A stretch of 32,000 nt of DNA. Source: an uncultured archaeon. GTDB taxonomy: Archaea > Asgardarchaeota > Thorarchaeia > Thorarchaeales > Thorarchaeaceae. Under the pieces are notes generated by a model that was not told where the DNA came from, did not search any database, and was given only the letters and a program-made list of their open reading frames with translations. The position numbers were made by a program, and so were the translations under genes. Positions 5,983-21,217 of the stretch are shown in pieces. How positions within the stretch are numbered: the stretch's first letter is position 1; every line of letters begins with the position of its first letter. Where the stretch lies: the NCBI GenBank assembly GCA_964354495.1, contig CAYHAA010000002.1:180001-212000 (forward strand), in the 5' to 3' direction.

Positions 5983-6684
5983 ATGAATAGCGATACAATT
6001 GTTGATGTACAGGACGTTTCCCGAGTCTATAGGATGGGGGAAATTGAAGTTCATGCACTGCGAGGTGTATCGCTGCAGATTCAGCGAGGTCAGGCAATTG
6101 GCATCATGGGGCCCAGTGGTAGCGGCAAGACCACCCTTCTGAATCTCATCGGTGCCCTTGACAGACCGACAAGTGGCAGGGTTGTTATAGATGACGTAGA
6201 TATCACAGAGATGTCTGACGACGCTCTTACTACTGTCAGGCGGAACAAGATCAGTTATGTCTTCCAATTCTTCAATCTGCTGCCCGTATTGACCGCGTAC
6301 GAGAACGTAGAGCTACCACTGCTCATCGCCGGAGTCGATGAAGACACACGGAAAGAGCAAGTGGACCATTTGCTATCCTTGGTTAGTCTCACTGAGAGGG
6401 CTGAACACCGTCCAGACGAGTTGTCAGGTGGAGAACAACAGAGAATTGCTATTGCTCGAGCTCTCGCCAAGCCAAAGGGTTCTGCTAGTTCCATCGTGGT
6501 CCTTGCAGACGAGCCAACAGGAGACCTAGACTACAACACGGGTAAAGAAATTCTGGATATTCTTGTATCGCTGACAAAGGGAGAGGGTGGAACACTGATC
6601 ACAGTGACGCATGATCCAGAAGTAGGCGAAAAGATGGACTATGTATACAGAATGCGCGACGGCCAGATTGAGAATCCTAAATGA
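5983..6684 (+). CDS. ABC transporter ATP-binding protein, LolD/MacB/FtsE-like family
   Basis: Walker A GPSGSGKT, Q-loop YVFQFFNL, signature LSGGEQQR, Walker B VVLADEPTG, H-loop VTHD. The likely start is ATG 5983 (MNSDTIVDV), not the track start of 5815. Confidence 0.93.
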   Translation: MNSDTIVDVQDVSRVYRMGEIEVHALRGVSLQIQRGQAIGIMGPSGSGKTTLLNLIGALDRPTSGRVVIDDVDITEMSDDALTTVRRNKISYVFQFFNLLPVLTAYENVELPLLIAGVDEDTRKEQVDHLLSLVSLTERAEHRPDELSGGEQQRIAIARALAKPKGSASSIVVLADEPTGDLDYNTGKEILDILVSLTKGEGGTLITVTHDPEVGEKMDYVYRMRDGQIENPK

Positions 6685-6694
6685 GGTGTGATTC

Positions 6695-9475
6695 ATGACT
6701 TCAGTGCCTGTAGGCTATGAGGCGTTTCATAGTCTCAGAAGAAAGGCTGTCACTATACTCTGTTTTCTGCTCGCATCGACTATGACTATGGGCATCACAG
6801 TGTATGTAGATTCGTATTCCGTCCATGAATGGGACAAGGACACTGATGTAGGCGATGTGGCAATCAAAGTCGAGGGCGAGGATATAGGGCACTACATCGG
6901 TGAGATCAGGGCTTTGTCAGGTGTCACCAAGGCGGAGGTTCTCCCCCGTGCTTATGGAAATCTTGAGAGAGTAGCCAATCTCACATCTGGCACTGAGGAG
7001 TTGTACGTTTATGGGCAGCTATTCGCTCCGAGCCAGCAGTTCCTTGATACATTCCCAAACTACATCGAGCTTGTGCGTGGAAGACTGCCAGAGAATCTCT
7101 CTGAGGTCGCTATTATCGACTCACTAAGCACATACTTCCATGTCTATCCTGGCGAGGAACTGCTCCTTCACACAGATTCCACAGCTGCGAATGTGACAGT
7201 CGTCGGATTCTATCGGCATGAAGACGATGAGGACTTGCCATACTACTGGATGTATGAGAGTATTGCGATAGTCATGGAGGGCATAATACAAGCAGCTCCG
7301 TATTCCTCTGCAGATATTCTGGTCGAAGTAGACCGTGCTCCACTCACGCCTTTCAACCCTGTAGGTTCTCTTGGCTATTTGACCGGGATTGACGAAGCGA
7401 TTAGGAGCCTTGATCCAGGATATGACCCTGTTCATAGTCCCTATTCAGAACTCAGTGTTCAAGACCGTCTGGCCTCTGGCATCACGGCATATATCTACTG
7501 GGTTCAAGCAACGCGAATAGGCGAGATGCTAAGGGCATCAAGTATCATGCTGCTTGTGATTCTTGTCACTTTCCTTGCAATACGACACAACGTCAATGAG
7601 CGACGATTTGAGGAAAGCATCCTCGTATCAAGAGGTGCTGCAAAGGGAGATCTGGAGAAAATAGTCACCCGAGAGATACTTGAACTATCAATCATCTCAT
7701 GTCTTCTCGGAATACCAATGGGACTGCTCTTCAGCAGAGTGGCGATTGGGGCGACTAGCTTCTTCTCTTTCGATTTTGGTCTCTTCATCAGTGAGCCACT
7801 ATTGGTCAGCCTTGAATCATTGATAATCGCAGTTATTGTAGGGTTTGTCCTTCCAATGCTGACCCTGACGGGCTATCGCATGGTCTATTCAACAAAGAAG
7901 AAAGTTGACGAAGAACGCGGAAAAATAGCCAAGCTTGCAAGAGGGCTCAATCTCATTCGCTGGGATGCGTTCGTTACGGCCATCGCTGGTCTCCTATTGC
8001 TCGCCCTCTCGACGGGTGGGCCTTCAGCCGCAAGCAACCCTATCCTATCGATGCTCATGCCACTCATTCCGCTTCCTCTCTTCCTCGGAGTAGCAAGCCT
8101 CTCCATGAAGGCTTTTCGAAGGGGTGCCAATTGGATGTCAAAAGGGATGAGGAGGATAGTTGGTGTAATACCATCATCTATTGGAATTCGACGAGTTGGC
8201 AAGGAAGCTTCGTCAGCAGGAGCAGCTGCAATGGTACTCGTGCTGGCCATATGTCTGAGCTGGAACAGCGCGATTATTGATGCATCGCTGCCTGTCACCG
8301 CTCAGAACCAAGCAAGACTTGCAGTTGGCTCCGATCTCAGTTTCAGATTGGATGAGACGAGCTATGACGTCTGGGATGAGTTTTTGACCAATGTCACAAG
8401 CCACGAACTGATCGTTGCGGGAACATTCGCCTCTACAAAACAACTCTATCTCTCGACAGATTACAGCGGCAGGACTTCTTTCCTGGCAATTGACCCTGAA
8501 AACTATTCGGGCATTGGATATGATTATCTAGGGAACCAACTCGACGAGTCAGAGATTGCAGGTCTAATCAATCAAATCCAGACCACTCGTGACGGAGCTA
8601 TTATCACTTCAGATATTGCAGCTGCCTACGACCTCGCAGTTGGAGATGTTCTTCGTGCTTCCACCATGGAGGACGATGCTTTTCCCGTCTCATTCAGAAT
8701 ACTAGGGATCACTGAGGCGCTCCCGGAGATGCCTGAACAGGACGACTGGTGGTACTATGATATCCCGTACTACTATTACTGGGGGGAGCAAGTAGGCAAG
8801 TGGAGAGTCATTGTAAATCGTGAGTATTTCAGAACTCTATTCAATTTGGTCAATGAAACAAGTAACTATCTATGTGTCAAGACCGTCGACGATGCCAATG
8901 CAACGAAAATCGTCGAGGACATTATTCAAGATGGTGGATTCATTGCAGTCTACAATGAGGAGTGGGACAGCGTCTATGGCCGCGTACACGACTACATAGA
9001 TGACGTGTCCTATAAAATGGAGAGGGCGATTGATACCATGCTCACTGTACTCGCGGTGGGCTCAATCGTAGGTGCATTCTCGATTTATGCTGTCGAGGGG
9101 CTTCGGGACCGGAGAAGAGAGATAGCTCTTCTCAGGTCAATCGGCGCAACAAAGAACACCATCATTATGGCTCAGGCAGCAGAGATGCTCATGCTCGTAA
9201 TGTTCAGTCTCTTCCTTCTACTTGTCTACTCGCCTTTGTTTTTGAGTACCTCAGTGGCCTCAGCAGGAGGCTCTGCGTCCATGTCGTACGAAATATACCC
9301 AATATCTGTCTTCCCCGTGATCCCATGGAACATCGTAATAGCAGTTCTTGGTTTCTTCATCCTGACCGTCACGGTGTTCATTGCAGTCATTGCAGCTCTC
9401 AGCTCCAAAATCAATCTAGCTGAAGCCCTCAACACATCATGGGCTGAGGCAGGACCCTATGGAGGAGAAGTCTAG
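6695..9475 (+). CDS. Double-FtsX-like ABC permease, type A copy 1
   Basis: N-terminal TM, large extracytoplasmic domain, FtsX-like segment (ERRFEESILVSRGAAK), further TMs, a second extracytoplasmic domain and a second FtsX segment (RRREIALLRSIGAT). SD-like GAGGTGTGA upstream. Confidence 0.85.
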   Translation: MTSVPVGYEAFHSLRRKAVTILCFLLASTMTMGITVYVDSYSVHEWDKDTDVGDVAIKVEGEDIGHYIGEIRALSGVTKAEVLPRAYGNLERVANLTSGTEELYVYGQLFAPSQQFLDTFPNYIELVRGRLPENLSEVAIIDSLSTYFHVYPGEELLLHTDSTAANVTVVGFYRHEDDEDLPYYWMYESIAIVMEGIIQAAPYSSADILVEVDRAPLTPFNPVGSLGYLTGIDEAIRSLDPGYDPVHSPYSELSVQDRLASGITAYIYWVQATRIGEMLRASSIMLLVILVTFLAIRHNVNERRFEESILVSRGAAKGDLEKIVTREILELSIISCLLGIPMGLLFSRVAIGATSFFSFDFGLFISEPLLVSLESLIIAVIVGFVLPMLTLTGYRMVYSTKKKVDEERGKIAKLARGLNLIRWDAFVTAIAGLLLLALSTGGPSAASNPILSMLMPLIPLPLFLGVASLSMKAFRRGANWMSKGMRRIVGVIPSSIGIRRVGKEASSAGAAAMVLVLAICLSWNSAIIDASLPVTAQNQARLAVGSDLSFRLDETSYDVWDEFLTNVTSHELIVAGTFASTKQLYLSTDYSGRTSFLAIDPENYSGIGYDYLGNQLDESEIAGLINQIQTTRDGAIITSDIAAAYDLAVGDVLRASTMEDDAFPVSFRILGITEALPEMPEQDDWWYYDIPYYYYWGEQVGKWRVIVNREYFRTLFNLVNETSNYLCVKTVDDANATKIVEDIIQDGGFIAVYNEEWDSVYGRVHDYIDDVSYKMERAIDTMLTVLAVGSIVGAFSIYAVEGLRDRRREIALLRSIGATKNTIIMAQAAEMLMLVMFSLFLLLVYSPLFLSTSVASAGGSASMSYEIYPISVFPVIPWNIVIAVLGFFILTVTVFIAVIAALSSKINLAEALNTSWAEAGPYGGEV

Positions 9476-12334
9476 ATGTTCCTGCTGTCGCGTCTTTCAG
9501 CAAGAGCACCAGAAGTGATTACAACTTTGGTAATATTCTCACTATCCAGCGGAGTACTTGGAGGCGTGCTGTTCTATATGGACTCAGCTTCTCCTGACGT
9601 CCTGGACGACATGACATCAGATGTGCCGATTGATATGCAGGTCTCATTCACTCCCCCGTTTTACGCACAGAATTGGACCAATCCAAATAGTACAACGATG
9701 GAAGATATCGAGAACGGTGTGTCTGCTCAGGATTTCGTCATATCTACTGAGAGAGTTGTTTTTGCAGAAGTAGAAGATTGGAATGAGGAAGACTACCGAT
9801 ATGCTAGGAAGGGCTTCCTTGGTGCAGACTATGGTGCTTTCCAGAGTTTCGCTGATGCAATTGATGTTAGAGTTGAAGCCCTGTCATACGATGACAACTC
9901 ATGCATTCTGGAGAGGTCACTCTTTCTGAGAATTGGTGCAGAGATTGGCGACAATTTCACGCTTAGTATGACAGTATACAACAGCACCTGGGAATTGGTG
10001 GAGTTAGAGAGGACGTTCATAGTCGTAGGAACATTCACATCGAATATCTATATGAATGAAATGTTCTGGGACCAGCCAGAGGCCACATACCTGCAGATGA
10101 TTACAACGCCAGAAGCAATAAATGCCACCTTCAGTATTCTCGGTCATGGACAGTATTACGGAGTCCAAGACAAGATTTGGGTCAAGTTCGACCATACAGT
10201 CATTATCCAATCAGACATAGCGAGTGTGGAGGAGTCTCTTCTCAATGTCAAGAGACGGGTTGAAAATGAGTATCTTCCCTACGTGATAATCAATTACAAT
10301 GATTTCCAGCTCATGGATGCAGTCTATGAATATACCATCTGGTCCGTCAGTATGAGGGCAATTGCTTTAGCATTCTCACTTCCAACCATTATGATGGGGA
10401 TGATGCTAATCCAGTATAATACTAGATTACTTGCTGATTCTCAGAGGAGGGATGTTGGTACTCTCAAGACAAGAGGCTCCTCAGGCATGCAAGCTTCTTC
10501 ATGGGTGCTCAGCAATGCACTTGCGACAGGATTCCTAGGAAGCATTGGTGCTGTTTGCACGGGCATTGCTGCTGCAATACTGTCGAGCACAGTGAAGGAA
10601 TTACTTGTGTTTGACCTAGAGCATCTTGCGGGCTTTACTATCCTTCTTCAGCCTATTGCTGTTGCTGCAGTGTTTTTCTTCTCCTTCATAGTAGGAATCA
10701 TAGTTGCTTTGCCTGCCGCAGTCAAAGCGTTACTTATGACACCCTCAGAGGCTCACGCCTCACTTGAGAGTGCAACCCTCTCAGATTCGGAGAAGACGGG
10801 AAGCCCTATTACAGATCTATTGATGATTGGCATAGCAGGTTGGCTGCTCTTTCCAATGATGAGTATGCTTGCCTATTTAGGGATGGGCGCTTTTGGGTCA
10901 TATGCGGCGGTAGCAGTGATTATTCCAATACTAGGTATCTTTCTCTTTGGATTCGTGCGTCTGCTGTCAAGACCCACTGCCGCAATCAAGGCCAAGATAC
11001 TTGGGAGAATGAGGCGGCCATCTCTTATTGTAGGCTTGCGACTGATGGCAAGGACAGTCCTAATGTTCAAGAAGTCGGAGGCGATGGGCACAATGTTTGT
11101 TGCCATGGTATTCATAGCCGGTATCTTCGCCTCGATTTCAGCGACGACAGGAAATGTCCATATGAAACAGGTCTTCATGTTTCAGACAGGAGCTGACATT
11201 GTCGTTGATGTTGATGCAAGCTTCACCAATATCACGCTGGACCTTCTGGAAAACATCAGCAGCGTTGACGGAGTTGCTCATGTAAGCCCGATGCTTCGTA
11301 CAACTGCCTATGTGCTGTACTCGGACTCGTCTTACTATGGATACCAGGAGTACTACAACCGTACAATTACTGTCTTCGGAGTGGATCCGGACACTTGGAT
11401 AGAATCAGCGTTCTGGTTGAGCTACTTCTCATATTATGCGCCGCCCAGTGTGTCGATTCCGCTACTCTCAGAGCCAGCACTCGATGGCATAAATGTAATC
11501 ACATCTTTCAAGCCGATCGATCACTATACTATCGATTCCACCGGACATCCGCAGCCAGTGTATTCCAATTTTATAGAATTGCAGATTATCACTCCCGATT
11601 CCAGAGACATAACCTCATGCACCATTGTGGATGTGCTGGCTGCAGCTATCAGCAATTATCCGGGTGTGACATATCTTCCTGGTGAACCTGATGCTACTGA
11701 TTTCCTAGTAGCTGACCTCGAGTTCATTCATTCGAGCTATAACACGACTCAGGTCTCGAAGTTCTATGTCGACCTAGTGCCTGATGCAAATTACACTAGA
11801 GTGATCAACGATATCCACGCCATCGCGCCGTACGCTTTCAATGATATCGAGTCGCCCTTCACCAATATCGATGACGTCCTCGCATCAAGGGGGACTCAGT
11901 CCATAAATGGAGCATATACTCTGAATGTGATATTCTCTTTGGTCTATTTGACAATAGGCATATCAATCGTAAGTTTAGTGCGAGTGAGAGGACTCAGGAA
12001 GCAACTCTCAGTGATTCGTGCTCTTGGTGCGCCGAACAAGTCAATAATCGTGGCATCTCTCTCTGAAACCAGCATTGGCTTGCTTATCGCGGCAGCAATT
12101 GGTTCGATAGTCGGTGTTTCTCTTGCTTACCTATTGATGAACTTGCCGCTCATCTATATGGGTGTGGCCACTGCCAGCGTGTGGTTGCGTCTGCCGGTCT
12201 TTCTGCAGATACCTATTCCACTGCTGCTGACAATAATCGTTGTGTCAGTTGGGGTTGCTTTGGCTGCCACATACTTCATACTTATTCGAATCTTGGGTCT
12301 GAACATTGCAGAAGAAATACAATACAATGAGTGA
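9476..12334 (+). CDS. Double-FtsX-like ABC permease, type B copy 1
   Basis: FtsX segments RRDVGTLKTRGSS and RKQLSVIRALGAP; TGADIVV motif at the start of the second extracytoplasmic domain; abuts the upstream stop. Confidence 0.85.
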   Translation: MFLLSRLSARAPEVITTLVIFSLSSGVLGGVLFYMDSASPDVLDDMTSDVPIDMQVSFTPPFYAQNWTNPNSTTMEDIENGVSAQDFVISTERVVFAEVEDWNEEDYRYARKGFLGADYGAFQSFADAIDVRVEALSYDDNSCILERSLFLRIGAEIGDNFTLSMTVYNSTWELVELERTFIVVGTFTSNIYMNEMFWDQPEATYLQMITTPEAINATFSILGHGQYYGVQDKIWVKFDHTVIIQSDIASVEESLLNVKRRVENEYLPYVIINYNDFQLMDAVYEYTIWSVSMRAIALAFSLPTIMMGMMLIQYNTRLLADSQRRDVGTLKTRGSSGMQASSWVLSNALATGFLGSIGAVCTGIAAAILSSTVKELLVFDLEHLAGFTILLQPIAVAAVFFFSFIVGIIVALPAAVKALLMTPSEAHASLESATLSDSEKTGSPITDLLMIGIAGWLLFPMMSMLAYLGMGAFGSYAAVAVIIPILGIFLFGFVRLLSRPTAAIKAKILGRMRRPSLIVGLRLMARTVLMFKKSEAMGTMFVAMVFIAGIFASISATTGNVHMKQVFMFQTGADIVVDVDASFTNITLDLLENISSVDGVAHVSPMLRTTAYVLYSDSSYYGYQEYYNRTITVFGVDPDTWIESAFWLSYFSYYAPPSVSIPLLSEPALDGINVITSFKPIDHYTIDSTGHPQPVYSNFIELQIITPDSRDITSCTIVDVLAAAISNYPGVTYLPGEPDATDFLVADLEFIHSSYNTTQVSKFYVDLVPDANYTRVINDIHAIAPYAFNDIESPFTNIDDVLASRGTQSINGAYTLNVIFSLVYLTIGISIVSLVRVRGLRKQLSVIRALGAPNKSIIVASLSETSIGLLIAAAIGSIVGVSLAYLLMNLPLIYMGVATASVWLRLPVFLQIPIPLLLTIIVVSVGVALAATYFILIRILGLNIAEEIQYNE

Positions 12335-12339
12335 TTATC

Positions 12340-13230
12340 ATGTCGGAAAACCTTGACCAAATCTCGGAACAATACAAAATAGTGGTGAGAGACCTCATGA
12401 AGGTCTATAGGAGGGGTCAAAAGGAAGTCATCGCACTGCGAGGAGTTGACTTTGAGGTCAGTGGGGGGGAATTCCTTTCGATAATTGGCCCATCGGGCAG
12501 CGGGAAGTCAACTCTGCTCAAGATGCTTGGAGCTTTGGACAAGCCAACAGCCGGAGTAATACTCTATGACGGTCATAGTGTCAATGCGTTGGATGATCGT
12601 CGTTCAATGCTTTATCGACGACAGAAAGTTGGATTCGTTTGGCAGATTGGAAACCTAGTTCCAGGGCTTAGCGCCCTCAGGAATGTAATTCTGCCGATGA
12701 AGCTTGCAGGGGCACCATCAAGCGCTTCGACTGAACGAGCCACCATGCTTCTTGAAACTCTGGGGCTTGGCGACAGAATGAATCATAAGCCCAACCAGCT
12801 ATCAGGAGGCGAGAACCAACGTGTGGCAATCTGTGTTGCCCTCGCTAACAGCCCTGAATTGCTTCTAGGTGATGAGATTACGGGAGAGCTGGACTCCGAA
12901 ACCACAGAGGTTGTAATGGACTCGCTGAAGAGAACAAACAAGGAGTTCGGCACTACCGTGATTAATGTCACTCATAATCCAAAGGTCGCTGAATACGCCG
13001 ATAGAGTTCTCAGGATTCGTGATGGTCTGATTGAGGGTCAGAAGCACATCCTATATGGTGACATCACTGAGATTGATGCAAAGGGAAGGATGGTCATACC
13101 GGATACAGTTCGCCGACTTGCAGGACTCGGCAAGAGAGTCGTCCTACGAGCAACCTCCGATGGGCTTCTCATCAGTCCCCTCGACACGAGTGGCGAAACT
13201 GGTGACAATCATGAAGTTGCATCAGAGTGA
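12340..13230 (+). CDS. ABC transporter ATP-binding protein (LolD/MacB-like) with C-terminal AbrB/MraZ-like swapped-hairpin domain
   Basis: GPSGSGKS, LSGGENQR, LLGDEITGELD, VTHN. The C-terminal EIDAKGRMVIPDTVRRLAGL resembles the AbrB N-terminus (VDELGRVVIP..LRR.LGI). Confidence 0.88.
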   Translation: MSENLDQISEQYKIVVRDLMKVYRRGQKEVIALRGVDFEVSGGEFLSIIGPSGSGKSTLLKMLGALDKPTAGVILYDGHSVNALDDRRSMLYRRQKVGFVWQIGNLVPGLSALRNVILPMKLAGAPSSASTERATMLLETLGLGDRMNHKPNQLSGGENQRVAICVALANSPELLLGDEITGELDSETTEVVMDSLKRTNKEFGTTVINVTHNPKVAEYADRVLRIRDGLIEGQKHILYGDITEIDAKGRMVIPDTVRRLAGLGKRVVLRATSDGLLISPLDTSGETGDNHEVASE

Positions 13231-13279
13231 AACATGAGCAATCTCTATATCGGAGTAAGTGAACCGGAGGTCAGGGACG

Positions 13280-13516
13280 ATGATGGAAAACAAACAGAAG
13301 ATGCCATGGTCATTCTACTCCACGCTCGCATCCTTCGGAGTGTTCTTTGCTTCCGCAAATATGTATATTCTGACAACATGGCTTGATCATCCATTCAAAT
13401 CGGACCTCTGGCTTATTGGTGGCGTCATAGGTCTTGTGTTGTTGGTGTATTCAATTCACATGGTTAGAAGACATCAACAAGAGTTGATTGAGAAGAAGCG
13501 ACTTGAAGGCACTTGA
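13280..13516 (+). CDS. Small two-TM membrane protein inside the ABC locus
   Basis: 78 aa from ATG 13280 with GGAGG upstream; two hydrophobic helices and a basic/charged C-terminal tail. Confidence 0.65.
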   Translation: MMENKQKMPWSFYSTLASFGVFFASANMYILTTWLDHPFKSDLWLIGGVIGLVLLVYSIHMVRRHQQELIEKKRLEGT

Positions 13517-13620
13517 CAGTTACAATGGCGCAATCAGGTACTATTTTATGCCGGTCATTTGTGTTCTCACCGAGCAAGGAGGCTTGAACACAGCACTTGC
13601 ATTCAACCTTTGACTCACCC

Positions 13621-16359
13621 ATGACGCCTCTGAAAAGAAGAACTGTGACTCTTCTTTGTTTTCTAACCGCAGCTTCGATTCTCTCATCCATCTTCATCTA
13701 TGTCGACTCCAGCTCGCTAACGACGTGGTCAGAATGCAACGAGGATGTGGGACCAGTCGCAATGAGAGTTATAGGAGATGATCTTCAACTGGCCCTCGAT
13801 GAAATAAGAGGCATTGCTCACGTCACGCAGGCAAGTCTTGTCGAGACTGCTCCTGCCTATCTTAGAATGGATAAGAATCAAGTCTATGTTGGTTCTCCGG
13901 ACGATCCTGCCAATCCCACATTCCTGTTACAGGGGAATGCATATGCTCTTAGCGACGATTTTATTGTCAATTTTCCCGAGGAATTTGAGATAGTGGAAGG
14001 AAGGTATCCGCAGAACTCCTCAGAGATAGCATTAACATATGCAGACGCAGCAGAGTGGAATATACCCATAGGGCGAATGATGAACTACACACATACTCTG
14101 AATGGAGAGAAGCGCACGATATTTGTTGTCGGGTTTTTTAAGCTAGAATACTATGATGCAATGAGGTATGCGACTGCAAAAATCATAGCCATTGTAGCAT
14201 CAGATGTGCTGAATCCATTAGCAATTAAGACATTGGGCTACATAGATGTTGATAGGGACATCCTATCACCACTAGATCCTAGAGGCAGCCTCGGTCTGCT
14301 TCTTGGAATCGAGAATAGCATTACTCGTGCTAGTCCGAGTGATTTGTCATATTCAGACTACTACGTTGACAACTATCTTGCAATGGGTGTACAATCGTAT
14401 CTGGATTCCCTGAATCTTCAGAGAATCAGACAAATCTCCAGAACACAAGCCCTTCTCCTGCTCGCAGGAATATTGAGCTTTCTCGCTGTACGATTCAATA
14501 TTACATCGCGCGAAGCTGAGATGGAGTTTCACATGATGAGAGGAGCCTCTAGAATTAGGATTCTGAGGTCGACTATGGTTGAATTGTGGATACTATCAAT
14601 CCTGTCAAGCGCACTATCCATTGTCCTGGGCCTTTTTCTAAGCGGACTCGCAGGAAGCTCGAATGGCTATCTTGACTTCAGTCTTGAAGATTCATTTGGT
14701 AGTCCACTACTTCTTACCAATGACACCGTAATCGCACTCGGACTCACGGGCCTCGCTCTGCCCGCAATTGGATACTTGACTCACAAAACAATCCGGACTG
14801 GCACTAGTGTAGAGACTGAACACAGTCAACTTGCAAAGCTTGTAAGAAACATTCGACTCGTCCGTTGGGATGTCGCTACCGTTCTGCTCGTCGTTCTGTT
14901 GATATTGACAATGTATATTGGCGGTCAGAACGTTAGCGGAAATGCAGCCCTTCTGCTCTTAGCCAGTTTCGTACCAATTCCGCTCTTCCTAGCTATTGCC
15001 AGCATGTTCAAGAAAAGCATCGTTCCGCTGACAAAGCCACTCTCCCGTCTTCTGGGTAATGTTACCGGCAAGATATCTGCGACTGTTGGCATTCGAGGCG
15101 TCGCTATTAGTGACAATATGGCGCTTCCCGTCATCTTGATCGTGTCACTCGTACTTTCATCATGTTTCATAAGTAATGTAGTAGCGACCAGTCTGCCCAA
15201 TACTCATCTCTTCCAGACAAGGTACCTTATCGGTGGAGACCTATCGTTTCATCTAGACAATGGAGAATCAGCCAGATGGAGTGACTTTAGCGAAGCTGTT
15301 CTACAACAGGAGGATGCGGTATCAGCCTCACTTGTTTCAATGGGACTCCTTTCACTATCGGAAGGAATTGAAGGAATCGTGGAATTCATCGCAATTAGCC
15401 CGGAGCAATATCGTCATGTTGGATACAGTCACACAGGGGAGGAACTAGATAGCTCAAGTCAGAATGAGCTCTTGCTGGATCTTGAGGTGAATCCGGAGGG
15501 AGCTATTCTTACATCGGACATAGCATCAGAATACAATCTTGTCCTTGGGGATACGTTGCGAGCGTTTTCTTTTGGGGATACCTCAATCACTACTGAATTC
15601 AACATCGTTGGCGTAACAGATGCTATTCCACGGCCAAAGGTGATTTCCCAGGTCACATCGGAGTCTGTGGTAGGTACGAGGAAAGTATGGCTCAACCGCA
15701 GTCATCTAGGAGCCCTAGTCGATTTGAATGCCACAGCCGAAACCTTCCTCTGTGTTAGGGTGTCTCATAATGCCAACGCTACAGAGATTGGCAAAGATGC
15801 ACTAGTGGACTATGAGTCGGTAATCCATTCCCAGAACGAGTGGTCATCAGCCACAGCTGAATTGGACTCCTTCTACGCACTACCAAGTTACAGCATCGAC
15901 AGAGCAATTGATAACATGCTAACTATCAATCTGGCATTTTGCATGTTTGCAGTTCTCATTGCATTTCAGGTCAATAGACAATGCATTGACAGAGGAAGCA
16001 ACGCTCTTCTCAAATTGATGGGCGCCCCCAGGAAATTGCTAGTGAGAACTCGCTGTGCAGAGGTGTTGGCCGTTATTCTCTTCAGTTTCTTTCTCGTGGC
16101 AATATTCAGCTCAATCAGCATAGCAAACACTCTTAGAATTGAGCTACTCGAATATAGTACATGGCTCTATACATTCCCAGTATCGATTTTTGCATTCGCA
16201 AATTGGAGCAGCTACCTCTGGGTCGCCTTGTTCCTGCTTGTGCCATCAATAGTACTAACAACTGCTTTGTCGATAAGGAGTGACGAGGGAAGTATTGCTG
16301 GTGTGCTGGACGATATAGAATCGTCTCGCAAGACTCGTTTTGTAGGAGAGTCTGATTGA
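13621..16359 (+). CDS. Double-FtsX-like ABC permease, type A copy 2 (paralog of 6695-9475)
   Basis: Colinear similarity to copy 1: VT(I/L)LCFL.A....I..YVDS, DVG.VA..V.G.D, IRWD, GGDLSF/GSDLSF, GAI(I/L)TSDIA..Y.L..GD.LRA. The likely start is ATG 13621. Confidence 0.82.
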   Translation: MTPLKRRTVTLLCFLTAASILSSIFIYVDSSSLTTWSECNEDVGPVAMRVIGDDLQLALDEIRGIAHVTQASLVETAPAYLRMDKNQVYVGSPDDPANPTFLLQGNAYALSDDFIVNFPEEFEIVEGRYPQNSSEIALTYADAAEWNIPIGRMMNYTHTLNGEKRTIFVVGFFKLEYYDAMRYATAKIIAIVASDVLNPLAIKTLGYIDVDRDILSPLDPRGSLGLLLGIENSITRASPSDLSYSDYYVDNYLAMGVQSYLDSLNLQRIRQISRTQALLLLAGILSFLAVRFNITSREAEMEFHMMRGASRIRILRSTMVELWILSILSSALSIVLGLFLSGLAGSSNGYLDFSLEDSFGSPLLLTNDTVIALGLTGLALPAIGYLTHKTIRTGTSVETEHSQLAKLVRNIRLVRWDVATVLLVVLLILTMYIGGQNVSGNAALLLLASFVPIPLFLAIASMFKKSIVPLTKPLSRLLGNVTGKISATVGIRGVAISDNMALPVILIVSLVLSSCFISNVVATSLPNTHLFQTRYLIGGDLSFHLDNGESARWSDFSEAVLQQEDAVSASLVSMGLLSLSEGIEGIVEFIAISPEQYRHVGYSHTGEELDSSSQNELLLDLEVNPEGAILTSDIASEYNLVLGDTLRAFSFGDTSITTEFNIVGVTDAIPRPKVISQVTSESVVGTRKVWLNRSHLGALVDLNATAETFLCVRVSHNANATEIGKDALVDYESVIHSQNEWSSATAELDSFYALPSYSIDRAIDNMLTINLAFCMFAVLIAFQVNRQCIDRGSNALLKLMGAPRKLLVRTRCAEVLAVILFSFFLVAIFSSISIANTLRIELLEYSTWLYTFPVSIFAFANWSSYLWVALFLLVPSIVLTTALSIRSDEGSIAGVLDDIESSRKTRFVGESD

Positions 16360-19199
16360 TGTACCTATCATCGAGAATAAGATCAAGTGCACCAGAGATT
16401 CTTGTTGCATTCTTGATTTTCTCTCTCTCTACGGGAGTTGTTGGAGGAGTCCTTCTTTATGTCGACAGTATAGGACCTGATGTCCTGGCTGAAATGTCCG
16501 AGGAAGTCGTTGTGGACATGCAGGTCTACTTCTATTCACCGTTTTACGAGCAGAACACCTCGACTGTTGAGACATACAGGGACATAGTTCTGAATCAAGA
16601 CTACATCATGGGAGCTGAGTGCATATCGTTCATAGAGATAAATGACCCTGATGCAAGTCGGAGTGAGTACACGAAAAGTGCCATTCTAGGAATCGAAGAG
16701 AGCTTCGAGAACTCATTTCCCAAAGCCATAGATATGTCTGAGGGCAACACGCCGCTCAATGAAACCAACTGCTATGTCCTAGAATCCAGATTAGTGAATG
16801 ATGGTCTAGCAATAGGTGACAATTACACAGCATCTATACCCTCAGATGGAGGCACCTTGGAGAAAACATTTGTCATCGCAGGCACTTTCGAGTCCAATGT
16901 TTTTCTCAGAAGACTTTCATACGATTCACCAGTATTCTCCTACCTGCACGTCGTGATTCTCAGAAGCACACTCCTCAATGAATTCTCAAGTTTGGAGCAC
17001 TCGGAGCAAGACAGCATTGTGGATCGAATTTGGGTTAGAATCGACTCTGGAGAGCTGCTGCTAGAGGATCCTTCATCAATTCTGACTCTCTTGCGGGCAA
17101 CAGAAAAGCAAATTGAACAGAAGACACTTCCTGATGCCTCCGTTGTTGAATTTGCGCTCGTATCAATATTCTATGAATACTCGACATGGACAACTTCAAT
17201 GAGAATCATTTCTTTTGCATTTTCAATACCGTCGATTATTATGGCCGTGATGCTGATACAATACAATTCTAGTCTTGAGTCTGAGCAACAGAGGCGGAGT
17301 GTTGGAGCATTGAAGACTCGTGGTGCCTCTGGCATTCAAGCGACTAGATGGATAATGAGCATGTCTCTATTCACAGGTTTCGTGGGCAGTATGGGTGCTA
17401 TAATGACTGGACTTGCATCAGCTGTCATTGCAGGAGGGGTGCGGGAACTTGTGGTGTTCGACATCTCTCTAATCAGTAGCTTTGTCGTTGTTCTCCGGCC
17501 GCAGTCGATCATCATCCTGTTCCTCTTTTCATTTGCCGCAGGCCTGCTTGTAACAACGCCGACCGCAATTCGTGCATTCTTGATGTCGCCAACTGAAGCT
17601 CACAGTGTCGTGGGCCACGAAGACGAGGCGCAAGAGAAAAGAATGAGCAACCCTGTCTATCAAGCTCTTGCAGTCGGTATTTCGGGGCTCCTCCTCATTC
17701 CTCTAGTTGGGAGCCTAGGATCTTTTGCGGACCTATCTGCAAGTTCAGCGCTGATTGGAATCACGTTCGTCATTGCACTGGCAACATTCATTGTGGGCTT
17801 GACATTTCTGCTTGCCAGACCTTCAGCAGATCTGAAAGCGAGTATCCTATTGCGTATCAAGAAACACTCGCTAATTGTGGGCTGCAGATTATTGGGAAGA
17901 AACGTTGTCACGTACACAAGGAGTGAAACTATAGCTGTTGTGTTCATATCCCTCGTGTTTACAGCGGGTGTTTTCTCAGCTATCGCTGCCACCTCAGGTA
18001 GCGAGCACATGAAGGGCCTCTTTATGTTCGAAGTAGGCGCAGATGTTGTCATGGATGTTCAACCGGGGCTGTCCAATGTTACGCTAGACATGATTGATGA
18101 TATCATGTCTGTTGAGGGAGTGTCTCAGGCAAGTGGATTCATGAGAACGATGGCAAGAGTGACCTATCTAATGGACTGGGATGGGCACTTGACTCCCTTC
18201 AATAGGTCATTGGTCATTTATGGAGTGCAGCCAAATGAGTTTGCTGAGGCAGCATTTCTAAGACCTGATTTTGCGTACTACGGAGACCCAAGGTCAGCCA
18301 TCCCGCTTCTAGAACAATCAGAAGAGAATGCAATCACTAATTTCAAGCCAATTGTCGAGTACGACACGGATTGGATTGGCAATTTATACCCGGTCCTATC
18401 GGATCATGTGGGTGTTGAATTGATTGGGCCATCAGGAAAACACACTTTGAATTGCACGATAGTTGACGTGCTGGCATCGACACCAGGCACGCTAGCACAG
18501 GGTATCTATTGGGGATCGTCATTCCGAGGAACGACATACCTACCTGGTGAAGATGATGACACTCAATTTGTGATGTTGGATATCAGTACGCTACACGAGT
18601 ACCTCAATGTTTCCTATGTCAACAGATTCTACATAGACCTTGTGCCTGATGCTAACTACACTAGGGTCATGCAGGAATTAGGCGGTATTGCTCCCTTCAG
18701 TTTCGCTGATATATCGTCACCATTTACTCAGATTGATGCAATCCTGAATTCAAGAGCAGGCGAATCAATCTATGGAGCATACACATTGAACATCCTCTTT
18801 TCAATTCTCTACCTGACTGCGGGAACTACATTAGTTGTCACCATGAAGGTGAGAACGCTCAGGAAACAATTCTCACTCCTCCGAGCCCTTGGCTCTCAGC
18901 CTGGGCACATTCTCAAAGCTATGCTTTCAGACTCTGTTATTGGTGTGATTCTCGGAGCCATCGTAGGTGGAATCGTTGGTTCTGTTCTATCGTTTGTTGT
19001 CATGCAGATGCCATTGACATATCTCGGACTGTCCACGGAGGTTTCGTGGGGCAGACTTCCGCTTATGATATCGGTGCCATTCATCCTAATCGCAGAGATA
19101 CTGACTCTAGCAGTCTTGTTCTCAATGGCTGCCACTTATTTGGTGGTGCGAAAAGGCCTGCAGGCGAATATTGCTGAGGATATTCAGCATTCGGAGTAG
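16359..19199 (+). CDS. Double-FtsX-like ABC permease, type B copy 2 (paralog of 9476-12334)
   Basis: Colinear similarity to copy 1: APE....IFSLS.GV.GGVL.Y.DS..PDVL..M, VG.LKTRG, FY.DLVPDANYTRV, GAYTLN..FS..YL. The ATG overlaps the upstream TGA (TGATG). Confidence 0.85.
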   Translation: MYLSSRIRSSAPEILVAFLIFSLSTGVVGGVLLYVDSIGPDVLAEMSEEVVVDMQVYFYSPFYEQNTSTVETYRDIVLNQDYIMGAECISFIEINDPDASRSEYTKSAILGIEESFENSFPKAIDMSEGNTPLNETNCYVLESRLVNDGLAIGDNYTASIPSDGGTLEKTFVIAGTFESNVFLRRLSYDSPVFSYLHVVILRSTLLNEFSSLEHSEQDSIVDRIWVRIDSGELLLEDPSSILTLLRATEKQIEQKTLPDASVVEFALVSIFYEYSTWTTSMRIISFAFSIPSIIMAVMLIQYNSSLESEQQRRSVGALKTRGASGIQATRWIMSMSLFTGFVGSMGAIMTGLASAVIAGGVRELVVFDISLISSFVVVLRPQSIIILFLFSFAAGLLVTTPTAIRAFLMSPTEAHSVVGHEDEAQEKRMSNPVYQALAVGISGLLLIPLVGSLGSFADLSASSALIGITFVIALATFIVGLTFLLARPSADLKASILLRIKKHSLIVGCRLLGRNVVTYTRSETIAVVFISLVFTAGVFSAIAATSGSEHMKGLFMFEVGADVVMDVQPGLSNVTLDMIDDIMSVEGVSQASGFMRTMARVTYLMDWDGHLTPFNRSLVIYGVQPNEFAEAAFLRPDFAYYGDPRSAIPLLEQSEENAITNFKPIVEYDTDWIGNLYPVLSDHVGVELIGPSGKHTLNCTIVDVLASTPGTLAQGIYWGSSFRGTTYLPGEDDDTQFVMLDISTLHEYLNVSYVNRFYIDLVPDANYTRVMQELGGIAPFSFADISSPFTQIDAILNSRAGESIYGAYTLNILFSILYLTAGTTLVVTMKVRTLRKQFSLLRALGSQPGHILKAMLSDSVIGVILGAIVGGIVGSVLSFVVMQMPLTYLGLSTEVSWGRLPLMISVPFILIAEILTLAVLFSMAATYLVVRKGLQANIAEDIQHSE

Positions 19200-19480
19200 C
19201 TGAAGTGATCTTTTCATCGGGCCCACTAGCGGATGCCCCGTGCAGACACTGCAGGATACATGAGGCCAGTCTGTCCATCGTCCGCCGCCAGCTATCAACG
19301 AACATGGACTTGAATCTTGCAGCCAATCGATGCAAGCATTCAGAGAGAAAAGTGGAAAAAAAAGTTCGCAAGGATTGTTCCTTCATAGCAGAACCACTTT
19401 TGACTGATGACGCTTACAAATAGCTAGGGGCAAATCCTTTGAAATGGAAGTGTCTTCTTGATATCATATGTAGAGAAGAG

Positions 19481-19588
19481 ATGATGTCCGAGAAAACACC
19501 TGAAGAAACTAAGGCAGCTGTTAAGAAGACGGCCAAGAAAGCGGCTACTAAGAAAACGACTGCAAAGAAAACAACCAAGAAGAAGTAG
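19481..19588 (+). CDS. 35-aa Lys/Ala/Thr-rich basic micro-protein resembling a histone H1 tail (missing from the ORF track)
   Basis: Translates as MMSEKTPEETKAAVKKTAKKAATKKTTAKKTTKKK (13 Lys, 3 Glu). Repeats are conserved in protein but vary at third codon positions, and oligo-T tracts follow the stop. Confidence 0.72.
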   Translation: MMSEKTPEETKAAVKKTAKKAATKKTTAKKTTKKK

Positions 19589-19597
19589 GAACTCTAC

Positions 19598-19616
19598 TTT
19601 TTCTCGTTCTTTTTTT
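19598..19616 (+). terminator. Archaeal oligo-T terminator candidate
   Basis: T5 (19598-19602) and T7 (19610-19616) in a pyrimidine tract 10-28 nt after the TAG of the basic micro-ORF. Confidence 0.6.
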
Positions 19617-19819
19617 GTCATTTGTGAATTGACATGATAGGGAGAGCGTCTGTCCACTAAGGTTGGACATAAGGAGTGTCAGTTATGCCACGGAAGAACA
19701 TGCATCACCGAATTCAGGTGTCATGCTGGACGTAACGAATGCTGCACTAGATGAGAAAAAGTGAGTGTTTCTTCGTCACGCTGAATATGCACTGATGCAA
19801 GTTTGAGAATTCTCATCGA

Positions 19820-21115
19820 CTAGGGATATATGCGACTGACGGTTCTAGGGAATGGAATACATTCTCGAATATGCTCTAGATTAAGCATCCATGTGATGAT
19901 TCTATCCATTCCAACACCGAAACCAGAGTGCTGTACACTGCCGTATCTTCTGATGTCAATGTACCACTTATACTTCTCTGAATCGTCACCGATTCGAAGT
20001 AGATTATCCATGAGCAGTTGAGCCTCGGTCTCTCGCTCACTTCCACCAATCACCTCTCCAAAGCCCCTTGGTCCGAGCAGGTCACTGTTCTTGTAAGTCC
20101 TGTGATCATCAGGGTTGTCTTTCATGTAGAAGGACTTGATCTCCTTAGGATAGTATTCCACGAAGAGGAAATTATCACTGTCCTTGGTCAGGAATTCCTC
20201 TGCATCACTCCGAATATCATCGCCCCATTTGATATCGATGCCGCCATTCTGGCACGCTTTGATTGCATCAGTATATGTCGTTCTGTCGAAGGGAGGGTTC
20301 ACATCAAGCAAACGTTGAGGGTCCACGCCCAGTTCCTTCAATTCCGGAAGCCTATTCTTCGCGACAGCGTGGCACATGTAGCTAATGAGTTCTTCCTGTC
20401 GCCTCATGTTACATTCATGATCACACCAGGCTTCTTCAACTTCTAGATGCCAGAACTCGGTGAGATGCTTTCTGGTTCGTGATTTCTCAGCCCGAAAAGA
20501 TGGTGCTAGAATGAACACCCTTTCCATCGCAAACAATTGAGGTTCCAGGTGCATTTGGCTGGTTTGCGTAAGGTACACCTTTCTGCCAAAGTATTCTACT
20601 TCAAATAGATCGCCTCCCTCCTCGCCCATCGTTGACACAAACATTGGACATGTAGTTTCATAGAAACCATGCTGCCGCAGATACTCCCGAGAGGCTGCAA
20701 AAACCTCATCCCTAATCTTGAATATACTTGTGAGCTTACGAGATCTCATCCATAAGTGGCGATTGTCATTCAGGAATTCGACGCTCTGATCTTCAGTAAT
20801 TGGGAATTCCTCTGCAAAGTGTAGTACATTGAAATCTTCGACTTGTACTTCAAAACCACCCTCAGCCCTTGGGTCAGCCTTGACAGTTCCGGCCAAGGTC
20901 ACAAGCGACTCTATCAGCATCCTCTCCGCGTCAGCGTAGCTCTGTTCACTGACCGCATCTTTCTTGACAACAGTCTGGACCACGCCTGAAGGGTCTCTCA
21001 AGACTACGAAGATCATTTTCTTCTGTTTGCGAATTCGATGTACCCAACCTCTGAGATGGACCTTCTTCCCATCATATCCACCTTCAAGCACATCTCTCAC
21101 ATGTACATAGCTCAC
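19820..21115 (-). CDS. asnS: Asparagine--tRNA ligase (class IIb, archaeal-type)
   Basis: OB-fold RGWVHRIR...FVVLRD, RHLWMRS, motif 2 FRAEKSRTRKHLTEFWHLE, EVIGGSERE, motif 3 RRYGSVQHSGFGVGMDR. GTG 21115 follows GGTGA; ATG 21160 is an alternative start. Confidence 0.9.
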   Translation of the reverse strand: MSYVHVRDVLEGGYDGKKVHLRGWVHRIRKQKKMIFVVLRDPSGVVQTVVKKDAVSEQSYADAERMLIESLVTLAGTVKADPRAEGGFEVQVEDFNVLHFAEEFPITEDQSVEFLNDNRHLWMRSRKLTSIFKIRDEVFAASREYLRQHGFYETTCPMFVSTMGEEGGDLFEVEYFGRKVYLTQTSQMHLEPQLFAMERVFILAPSFRAEKSRTRKHLTEFWHLEVEEAWCDHECNMRRQEELISYMCHAVAKNRLPELKELGVDPQRLLDVNPPFDRTTYTDAIKACQNGGIDIKWGDDIRSDAEEFLTKDSDNFLFVEYYPKEIKSFYMKDNPDDHRTYKNSDLLGPRGFGEVIGGSERETEAQLLMDNLLRIGDDSEKYKWYIDIRRYGSVQHSGFGVGMDRIITWMLNLEHIRECIPFPRTVSRIYP

Positions 21116-21217
21116 ATTGGTCACCACAAAGATGAATTGGGCTCCTGAAGAGCCTAGCATCTATCGCCCTTGGCTTCACGGATAAAAGGGTGACGGCTTG
21201 AGGAAACCATCATTCGT

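Follow-up and report, generated by a model that had tools for sequence, protein, structure and literature searches.

Lysine-rich, low-complexity polycations are known from bacteria, from eukaryotes and, as protein tails, from Asgard archaea. The closest counterparts of the locus reported here are Hc2 of Chlamydia trachomatis (hctB) and the Hc2-like proteins of Bordetella and Burkholderia, which consist almost wholly of lysine-rich repeats with Ala, Thr, Val and Pro and have no globular domain; small HC2-like proteins are common in bacteria, and Chlamydia Hc2, which is 165–237 aa long, is polymorphic in length through the gain and loss of a 36-aa repeat element (PMC2848022). The C-terminal domain of eukaryotic linker histone H1 is likewise strongly basic and rich in K/A/T(P); it is disordered with a propensity for helix, and is expected to neutralize DNA charge. 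The H1 of kinetoplastids consists of the tail only and has the same K/A/T(P)-rich, basic, helix-prone character. In Pseudomonas, the H1-like regions of AlgP and PhaF are low-complexity polycationic repeats that act by electrostatics, and both have documented partners: AlgP is found with polyphosphate granules (PMC9239181), and the disordered H1-like region of PhaF binds specific mRNAs and activates translation (PMC12818456). Within the Asgard archaea, lysine-rich N-terminal tails are known on histones, among them the HLoB/HMpB type (bioRxiv 10.64898/2026.07.02.735847; see also 10.1101/2021.11.30.470311).

The present study suggests that a polycation of this general kind is encoded, as a gene of its own, in a metagenome-assembled Thorarchaeota genome. 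The window, that is, the whole 32,000-nt stretch of DNA analyzed, comprises positions 180001–212000 of contig 2 of a genome (hereafter G000) of 51 contigs and 3.3 Mb that is 97.7% complete; its features are collected in Table 1. The 35-aa, +10 frame with recurring KK pairs described in an earlier note on this DNA is borne out by translation of 19481–19588 on the + strand (MMSEKTPEETKAAVKKTAKKAATKKTTAKKTTKKK, followed by the stop) and by residue count, with 13 Lys, 3 Glu and neither Arg nor Asp. Beyond residue 10 the peptide is made of K, A, T and V only, the KK pairs are spaced by nothing but A, T or V, and the codons are mixed across the repeats (AAG/AAA, GCA/GCT/GCC/GCG, ACG/ACT/ACA/ACC). 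Among the 17 lysine-dense stretches found by a six-frame scan of the 3.3-Mb genome, it is the sole short stand-alone frame of the K/A/T type, the others lying inside larger frames. That the frame had been missed by ORF calling also holds, in that its 35-aa, 34-aa and TTG-extended 49-aa versions are absent from a collection of 15 billion proteins; the 100-aa ortholog described below is on record in the ESM Atlas. The further particulars of the note, namely T5 and T7 tracts after the frame (19598–19602 and 19610–19616, both 3′ of the stop), an asnS neighborhood and a probable Asgard host, agree with what was found: the convergent downstream gene is a class II tRNA synthetase of the Asn/Asp type, and its nearest relatives are in Candidatus Thorarchaeota metagenome-assembled genomes.

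Table 1. Features at the micro-gene locus, in window coordinates
Feature	Position	Strand	Description
Upstream neighbor, 947-aa double-FtsX-type ABC permease	16356–19199	+	Pfam FtsX 2.4e-8; co-oriented with the micro-ORF
Antisense ORF	19414–19578	-	54 aa, TTG start; 105 aa in OWC2; judged an artefact of the lysine-codon repeats
Conserved 5′ flank	19446–19480	+	Possible core promoter or short leader; conservation from alignment and variant table, promoter role putative
30-nt patch matching a NUDIX-like gene	19456–19485	+	ATGAT and the 25 nt that precede it; match at G000:C13:39516-39545 (minus strand)
Micro-gene CDS (probable)	19481–19588	+	35 codons plus TAG; Lys/Ala/Thr-rich polycation, net +10 (from translation)
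Core of the 42-nt (14-codon) repeat unit	19517–19554	+	Copy number differs between alleles
Terminator-like element	19578–19616	+	11-bp hairpin over the last Lys codons and the stop, then T5 and T7
Downstream neighbor, class II aminoacyl-tRNA synthetase (asnS/aspS type)	19820–21160	-	Pfam tRNA-synt_2 6.6e-68 plus OB anticodon domain; convergent

The permease is the last gene of a MacB/FtsX-type ABC locus (window 5983–19199) and ends 281 nt before the micro-ORF. Between that locus and the micro-ORF there is only a T4 run, and the micro-ORF may be co-transcribed as a last cistron. The 280-nt region upstream is ~85% conserved between G000 and OWC2, the same-genus isolate introduced below, and contains minus-strand frames starting MKEQS (19081–19386, 101 aa, in G000; 58 aa in OWC2) that diverge in length and sequence past ~25 residues and are probably spurious. 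Two readings that would attach the micro-ORF to a neighbor were considered and set aside. It is not the C-terminal tail of the permease split off by a frameshift, as in every ortholog the permease terminates with the conserved DIQHSE, 281 nt before the micro-ORF; a leader peptide or attenuator of asnS was rejected because asnS is convergent.

The frame has a syntenic ortholog. In OWC2 (G012, PRDH01000003.1) a 100-aa ORF lies between the FtsX permease and asnS, shares the ATGATG start with the G000 form, is identical to it at 16 of the first 18 residues and ends in the same KKTTAKK-x-TKKK-stop. A third form, of 49 aa, was recovered in contigs from four public runs belonging to four studies (runs X1, X5, X7 and X11), and the ATGATG start, the N terminus, the C-terminal KKK-stop and the hairpin with its U tract are common to all three. 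The four contig sets are of DNA or of unspecified type, and no RNA run was listed among those containing the stretch; the RNA runs retrieved were unrelated and had no more than a species label in common. The frame-conserved homolog with conserved start and stop for which the earlier note had proposed a search thus exists, both in OWC2 and as the 49-aa strain allele. The latter is a 42-nt in-frame tandem duplication (joint 19554>19517 plus GAAG), so that the 49-aa allele exceeds that of G000 by one unit, while OWC2 has about three extra, diverged units; Tandem Repeats Finder reports a period of 42 with 3.1 copies at 82% identity in OWC2, and the 14-residue unit follows the pattern KK-x-x-KK-x-x-x-KK-x-x-x. 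Because the layout of the 49-aa form matches the start of the OWC2 protein, the 35-aa form of G000 is most likely a one-unit contraction. An in-frame TAA just upstream of ATGATG in OWC2 and in the strain variants identifies ATGATG as the shared start. Only in G000 is there an in-frame TTG (19439–19441) with no stop before ATGATG, which allows a possible 49-aa, TTG-started reading; this extension is not conserved, the next codon being TAA in OWC2 and in all four sets of strain contigs.

Several observations indicate constraint on the reading frame. Of the 12 columns that vary among the diverged 42-nt units, 9 do so at the third position of the codon (binomial P=0.004), a bias that would equally appear were the antisense frame the coding one. 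All aligned Lys codons remain Lys between G000 and OWC2, where the codon changes are otherwise 4 nonsynonymous and 3 synonymous, so that constraint on the individual A/T/V/P residues is weak. Over the 801 nt compared, the strain variant of run X1 differs from the window by 12 substitutions and one 1-nt deletion; the 12 substitutions lie in the 512 nt of intergenic DNA on either side and the 108-nt CDS has none (P=0.077), and the CDS in this respect behaves like the adjoining ends of the permease and asnS genes. The codon score is higher for the + frame (0.38 and 0.30 bits per codon) than for the antisense frame (0.02 and 0.17). The ESM Atlas contains the 100-aa product of OWC2 letter for letter, so that the + frame is on record as a predicted protein. 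In-frame length change is by itself no proof of selection, since a unit of 42 nt is divisible by three. The proposal that the repeats reflect selection on a protein rather than a DNA microsatellite is nevertheless upheld by the frame-conserved ortholog, the strain allele and the prevalence of unit differences at codon position 3, and we consider it likely, from sequence comparison, that the micro-ORF is a real coding micro-gene of the H1-tail/Hc2-like type.

The flanks of the frame are also conserved, in part. On the 3′ side, the hairpin is predicted to fold at -11.9 kcal/mol in G000 and -14.3 kcal/mol in OWC2 (z -2.1 and -3.4); its stem is kept in the two species, 4 of the 5 loop bases differ, and in the strain variants T19600C turns its single G-U pair into G-C. 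The distance from the stop of the micro-ORF to that of asnS is ~230 nt in G000 (19589–19819) as against ~105 nt in OWC2, and the additional ~125 nt of G000 contain no conserved ORF and no Rfam match. An Rfam search of 18900–20000 gave a sub-threshold chance match only (STnc420, 23 bits against a threshold of 70). On the 5′ side, G000, OWC2 and the strain variants agree at every position of 19446–19473 and vary over 19430–19445. Profiles derived from the G000 genome place the Shine–Dalgarno (SD) sequence at -14 to -8 and show a faint A/T rise at -27; with these genome-derived profiles no recognizable TATA box and no SD of at least 4 nt was found before the micro-ORF. An SD of this length is also missing from 38% of the confident, well-defined genes of G000, and its absence here is therefore uninformative. 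A sigma-70 promoter scan of the window is irrelevant to an archaeon.

Part of the conserved 5′ flank has a match elsewhere in the genome. In whole-genome blastn, a 30-nt patch that ends within the start codons matches the interior of a NUDIX-like gene at 27 of 30 positions in G000 (E 4e-4), and the OWC2 copy matches at 28 of 30 (E 1.6e-5); the two encode, in the same frame, LDIICREEMM and LDIVCREEMI. The patch is present in only two copies in G000, and the NUDIX-like gene is conserved in the genus, the ortholog of OWC2 itself being far less similar within the patch. The patch could be a captured start region or the trace of a gene conversion. This patch excepted, there is no DNA-level parent copy of the micro-ORF in G000 or OWC2. 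A copy of the N-terminal tail of an FKBP, which begins MSEKK in relatives, was considered as a source and rejected, as there is no similarity at the DNA level and the FKBP of G000 starts MTEKEAT.

The distribution of the gene is narrow. Of 28 genomes belonging to the genus, only G000 and OWC2 contain the DNA of the locus, and inspection of 26 more asnS loci from the genus and of 52 from Thorarchaeota genomes in GTDB showed a lysine-rich ORF there in OWC2 only. The permease/asnS junction occurs without the micro-ORF in two other genomes of the set (G002 and G003), where the spacer is an unrelated one of 580 nt or is 160 nt long. A search of 301 sampled Asgard genomes with the 100-aa form as query returned G000, OWC2 and two tails inside frames of 348 and 374 aa. 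Exhaustive HMMER searching of 1.84 billion protein representatives found no stand-alone relative, its three matches all being tails of unrelated proteins of 419–487 aa, and use of the conserved 5′ block as a pattern against metagenomes and genomes returned only OWC2 and its apparent source contig, with no further allele. A homologous-protein search with the 100-aa form gave one compositional match, P0002, through its KKAAVKK tail. This 99-aa protein from a Logan assembly, the only match in the range of 55–175 aa, joins a Cys-rich head resembling a zinc ribbon (CRICG...CGC...CC) to a KKAAVKKVVKKAAPKK tail and exemplifies a minimal head-plus-lysine-tail protein. As judged from these comparisons, the micro-gene is young and restricted to two sister species of Thorarchaeota: the occurrence of the stand-alone form in these two alone points to a recent and not an ancestral origin. 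The two-species restriction and the threefold range in length are also compatible with a gene that is dispensable or not yet functional.

What the gene would encode resembles the described systems in composition, and the resemblance has clear limits. The 35-aa form has no Pfam match, and the 100-aa form matches Pfam HC2 (PF07382) below threshold, at 19.1 bits (E 0.0015) against a gathering cut-off of 40 bits. The feature clusters in ESM that are closest to the 100-aa form are bacterial HC2-like proteins of 85–118 aa. The comparison with H1 tails and Hc2 that the earlier note had drawn therefore stands for the richness in K, A and T, the weak HC2 match and the nearest ESM clusters, and falls short as a family assignment, at 19 bits versus 40 and with no Pfam match for the 35-aa form. 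A further HC2 match in G000, at C6:28588-28851, was dismissed as an off-frame Pro/Gly-rich artefact. No PDB sequence matches at E<=1, and a winged-helix globular domain of the linker histone H1/H5 type (PF00538) was not found by Pfam, in PDB sequences or in the AF2 model. AF2 builds one continuous helix from residue 8 to 99 with a pTM of 0.38 and no tertiary fold, and ESM's own model is of low confidence; long-helix and low-confidence models are typical of K/A-rich disordered, helix-prone tails, and the product is thus predicted to be of that kind. A cationic antimicrobial peptide was rejected, as a hydrophobic face and a signal sequence are both absent.

Set against each of these systems in turn, the micro-gene is most like Hc2: it consists entirely of short lysine-rich repeats, and its alleles of 35, 49 and 100 aa differ in the number of copies of a repeat element, which measures 14 aa here and 36 aa in Hc2. 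Unlike Hc2, the product is only 35–100 aa long, is archaeal and is confined to two species. It has the Lys/Ala/Thr/Pro-rich basic character of an H1 tail as a compositional resemblance only, and unlike H1 it has no winged helix and no S/TPKK kinase motifs and is not conserved in Asgard archaea. Compared with AlgP and PhaF, which are longer, bacterial and Pro-rich (KPAA/AAKP-type), it shares the polycationic repeats. Nor is it the tail of a histone of the HLoB/HMpB type, in which the histone fold follows the lysine-rich tail: the ORF stops right after the repeats in all three alleles, and the only PF00808 match of G000 is elsewhere (C1:410736-410918). G000 encodes one short-tailed histone, at C1:410634-410942, and one Alba, at C18:36246-36596.

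The nearest relatives in motif are found within the phylum itself. In this Thorarchaeota genus, tails of the KKTTAKK/KKAAPKK type occur on eS25 (C-terminal) and on an FKBP26-type PPIase, Topo VI-A and RpoA'' (N-terminal), and in another Asgard family Alba has a lysine-rich N-terminal tail, MSEEETIEKEEPKKKTTAKK..., with a similar acidic MSEEE cap. By Pfam, the tail-bearing domains are Rpb1-domain-5 (RpoA''), TP6A_N+HhH, S25, FKBP and Alba. Polycationic tethering of proteins that handle DNA or RNA thus looks like a phylum-wide habit of the Asgard archaea. The micro-protein shares with these tails the phylum, the KKTTAKK and KKAAxKK dialect and the frequent acidic N-terminal MSE(K/E) cap; unlike them it is free, whereas they take their target from the folded domain to which they are attached, and it has no DNA-level parent among them.

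Within this framework there is room for more than one view of what the locus does. It may be a proto-gene or a decaying remnant, a recently arisen or orphaned lysine-tail repeat that is perhaps transcribed and translated at a low level, has no selected function and, in its 35-aa allele, is contracting toward loss. We regard this as a lesser but real possibility: the gene is present at 2 of ~50 Thorarchaeota asnS loci and stands alone in 2 of the 301 sampled Asgard genomes, the permease/asnS synteny persists without it in G002 and G003, and the threefold length range, the ~4 nonsynonymous versus 3 synonymous changes between the orthologs, the start region apparently patched from the NUDIX gene and the lack of an evident SD or TATA all fit. 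Indeed, the narrow distribution and the length variation fit a functional gene only slightly better than a dispensable proto-gene. Arguing the other way are the position-3 bias among the diverged units (P=0.004), which points to past selection on the reading frame, the lack of a parent copy in G000 or OWC2, and the persistence of start, stop, N terminus and hairpin across the species split, together with a strain-variant CDS free of substitutions. A different view accepts a real polycation and gives it a main partner other than chromosomal DNA, such as polyphosphate granules, ribosomes or rRNA, or specific mRNAs. The partners of AlgP and PhaF are precedents for this, and eS25, FKBP and Alba, all carriers of the motif in Asgard archaea, have links to RNA or the ribosome; Topo VI-A and RNA polymerase bear it just as well, however, and the neighbors of the micro-gene are an ABC exporter and asnS, with no polyphosphate or ribosome genes at the locus. 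We consider such a main partner unlikely.

Two further explanations carry far less weight. The minus strand might be the coding one, for a hydrophobic Val/Phe/Leu/Ala-rich peptide of 54–105 aa of which the lysine ORF would be the mirror image. That frame is open in both G000 and OWC2, and, as the coordinates show, it shares its wobble positions with the + frame, so that the position-3 bias suits both and the phase of substitutions cannot separate them. Its start is not conserved, however, TTG in G000 being TTA in OWC2; the two species agree at just five of its ten C-terminal residues (HFKGFAPSYL versus HYNGFVPRNV); its codon score is the lower of the two; the hairpin and U tract sit after the + strand stop; the ESM Atlas record is of the + frame product; and a run of ~85 unbroken uncharged residues is not that of a normal membrane protein. 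Coding on this strand is accordingly very improbable. More improbable still is that the peptide is a true homolog or precursor of the eukaryotic H1 tail, conserved in Asgard archaea, for which there speak the K/A/T composition and the Asgard host only. Neither the 301 Asgard genomes sampled nor the 1.84 billion representatives yielded a relative beyond the two sister species, there is no winged-helix domain, and similarity in low-complexity sequence cannot establish homology. The suggestion in the earlier note that the locus is relevant to the origin of H1 must therefore be abandoned: only 2 of the 301 sampled genomes have a stand-alone form, the ~50 other Thorarchaeota asnS loci lack it, and there is no globular domain; the distribution shows an independent and recent origin, and the gene has no bearing on H1 ancestry.

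The explanation that best accommodates these observations, and whose chances of being correct in full we would place at about even, is that the locus is a real, young + strand gene for a free-standing polycationic tail that binds nucleic acids non-specifically. Its product would be a domain-less, disordered or helix-prone polycation, in effect a tail without a body. The length of the protein (35, 49 or 100 aa) would shift as 42-nt units undergo slippage or are exchanged unequally, and since length changes by this unit, the selected property would be charge or composition and not the exact sequence. We infer that the peptide is translated, binds nucleic acid and has a role in the cell. Its likeness to the tails on RpoA'', Topo VI-A, eS25, FKBP and Alba makes DNA and/or RNA the most likely ligand of the free peptide, a view based on analogy and on the proteins that carry the motif. 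Binding would be by charge, partly neutralizing the nucleic acid backbone, and its strength would scale with the number of units; the peptide would act in trans, as do the H1 C-terminal tail and chlamydial Hc2. A more elaborate version, which we think rather doubtful, extends to the birth of the gene: a 42-nt lysine minisatellite would have gained a start and a 5′ flank from the NUDIX patch, together with a hairpin terminator, and so have become a free, trans-acting tail, a length-tunable polycation of chromatin or RNA that is H1-tail-like but independent in origin.

The KKTTAKK-type tails on many Asgard proteins that handle DNA or RNA constitute a wider and better-supported pattern than the micro-gene itself. 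If the peptide is made, a lysine-rich tail can serve Asgard archaea as a polycation in its own right, besides being attached to histones and enzymes. The micro-gene would then provide a dated, small-scale example of how a low-complexity nucleic acid binder is born and changes in length, and would be another short gene that is missing from large collections of predicted proteins.
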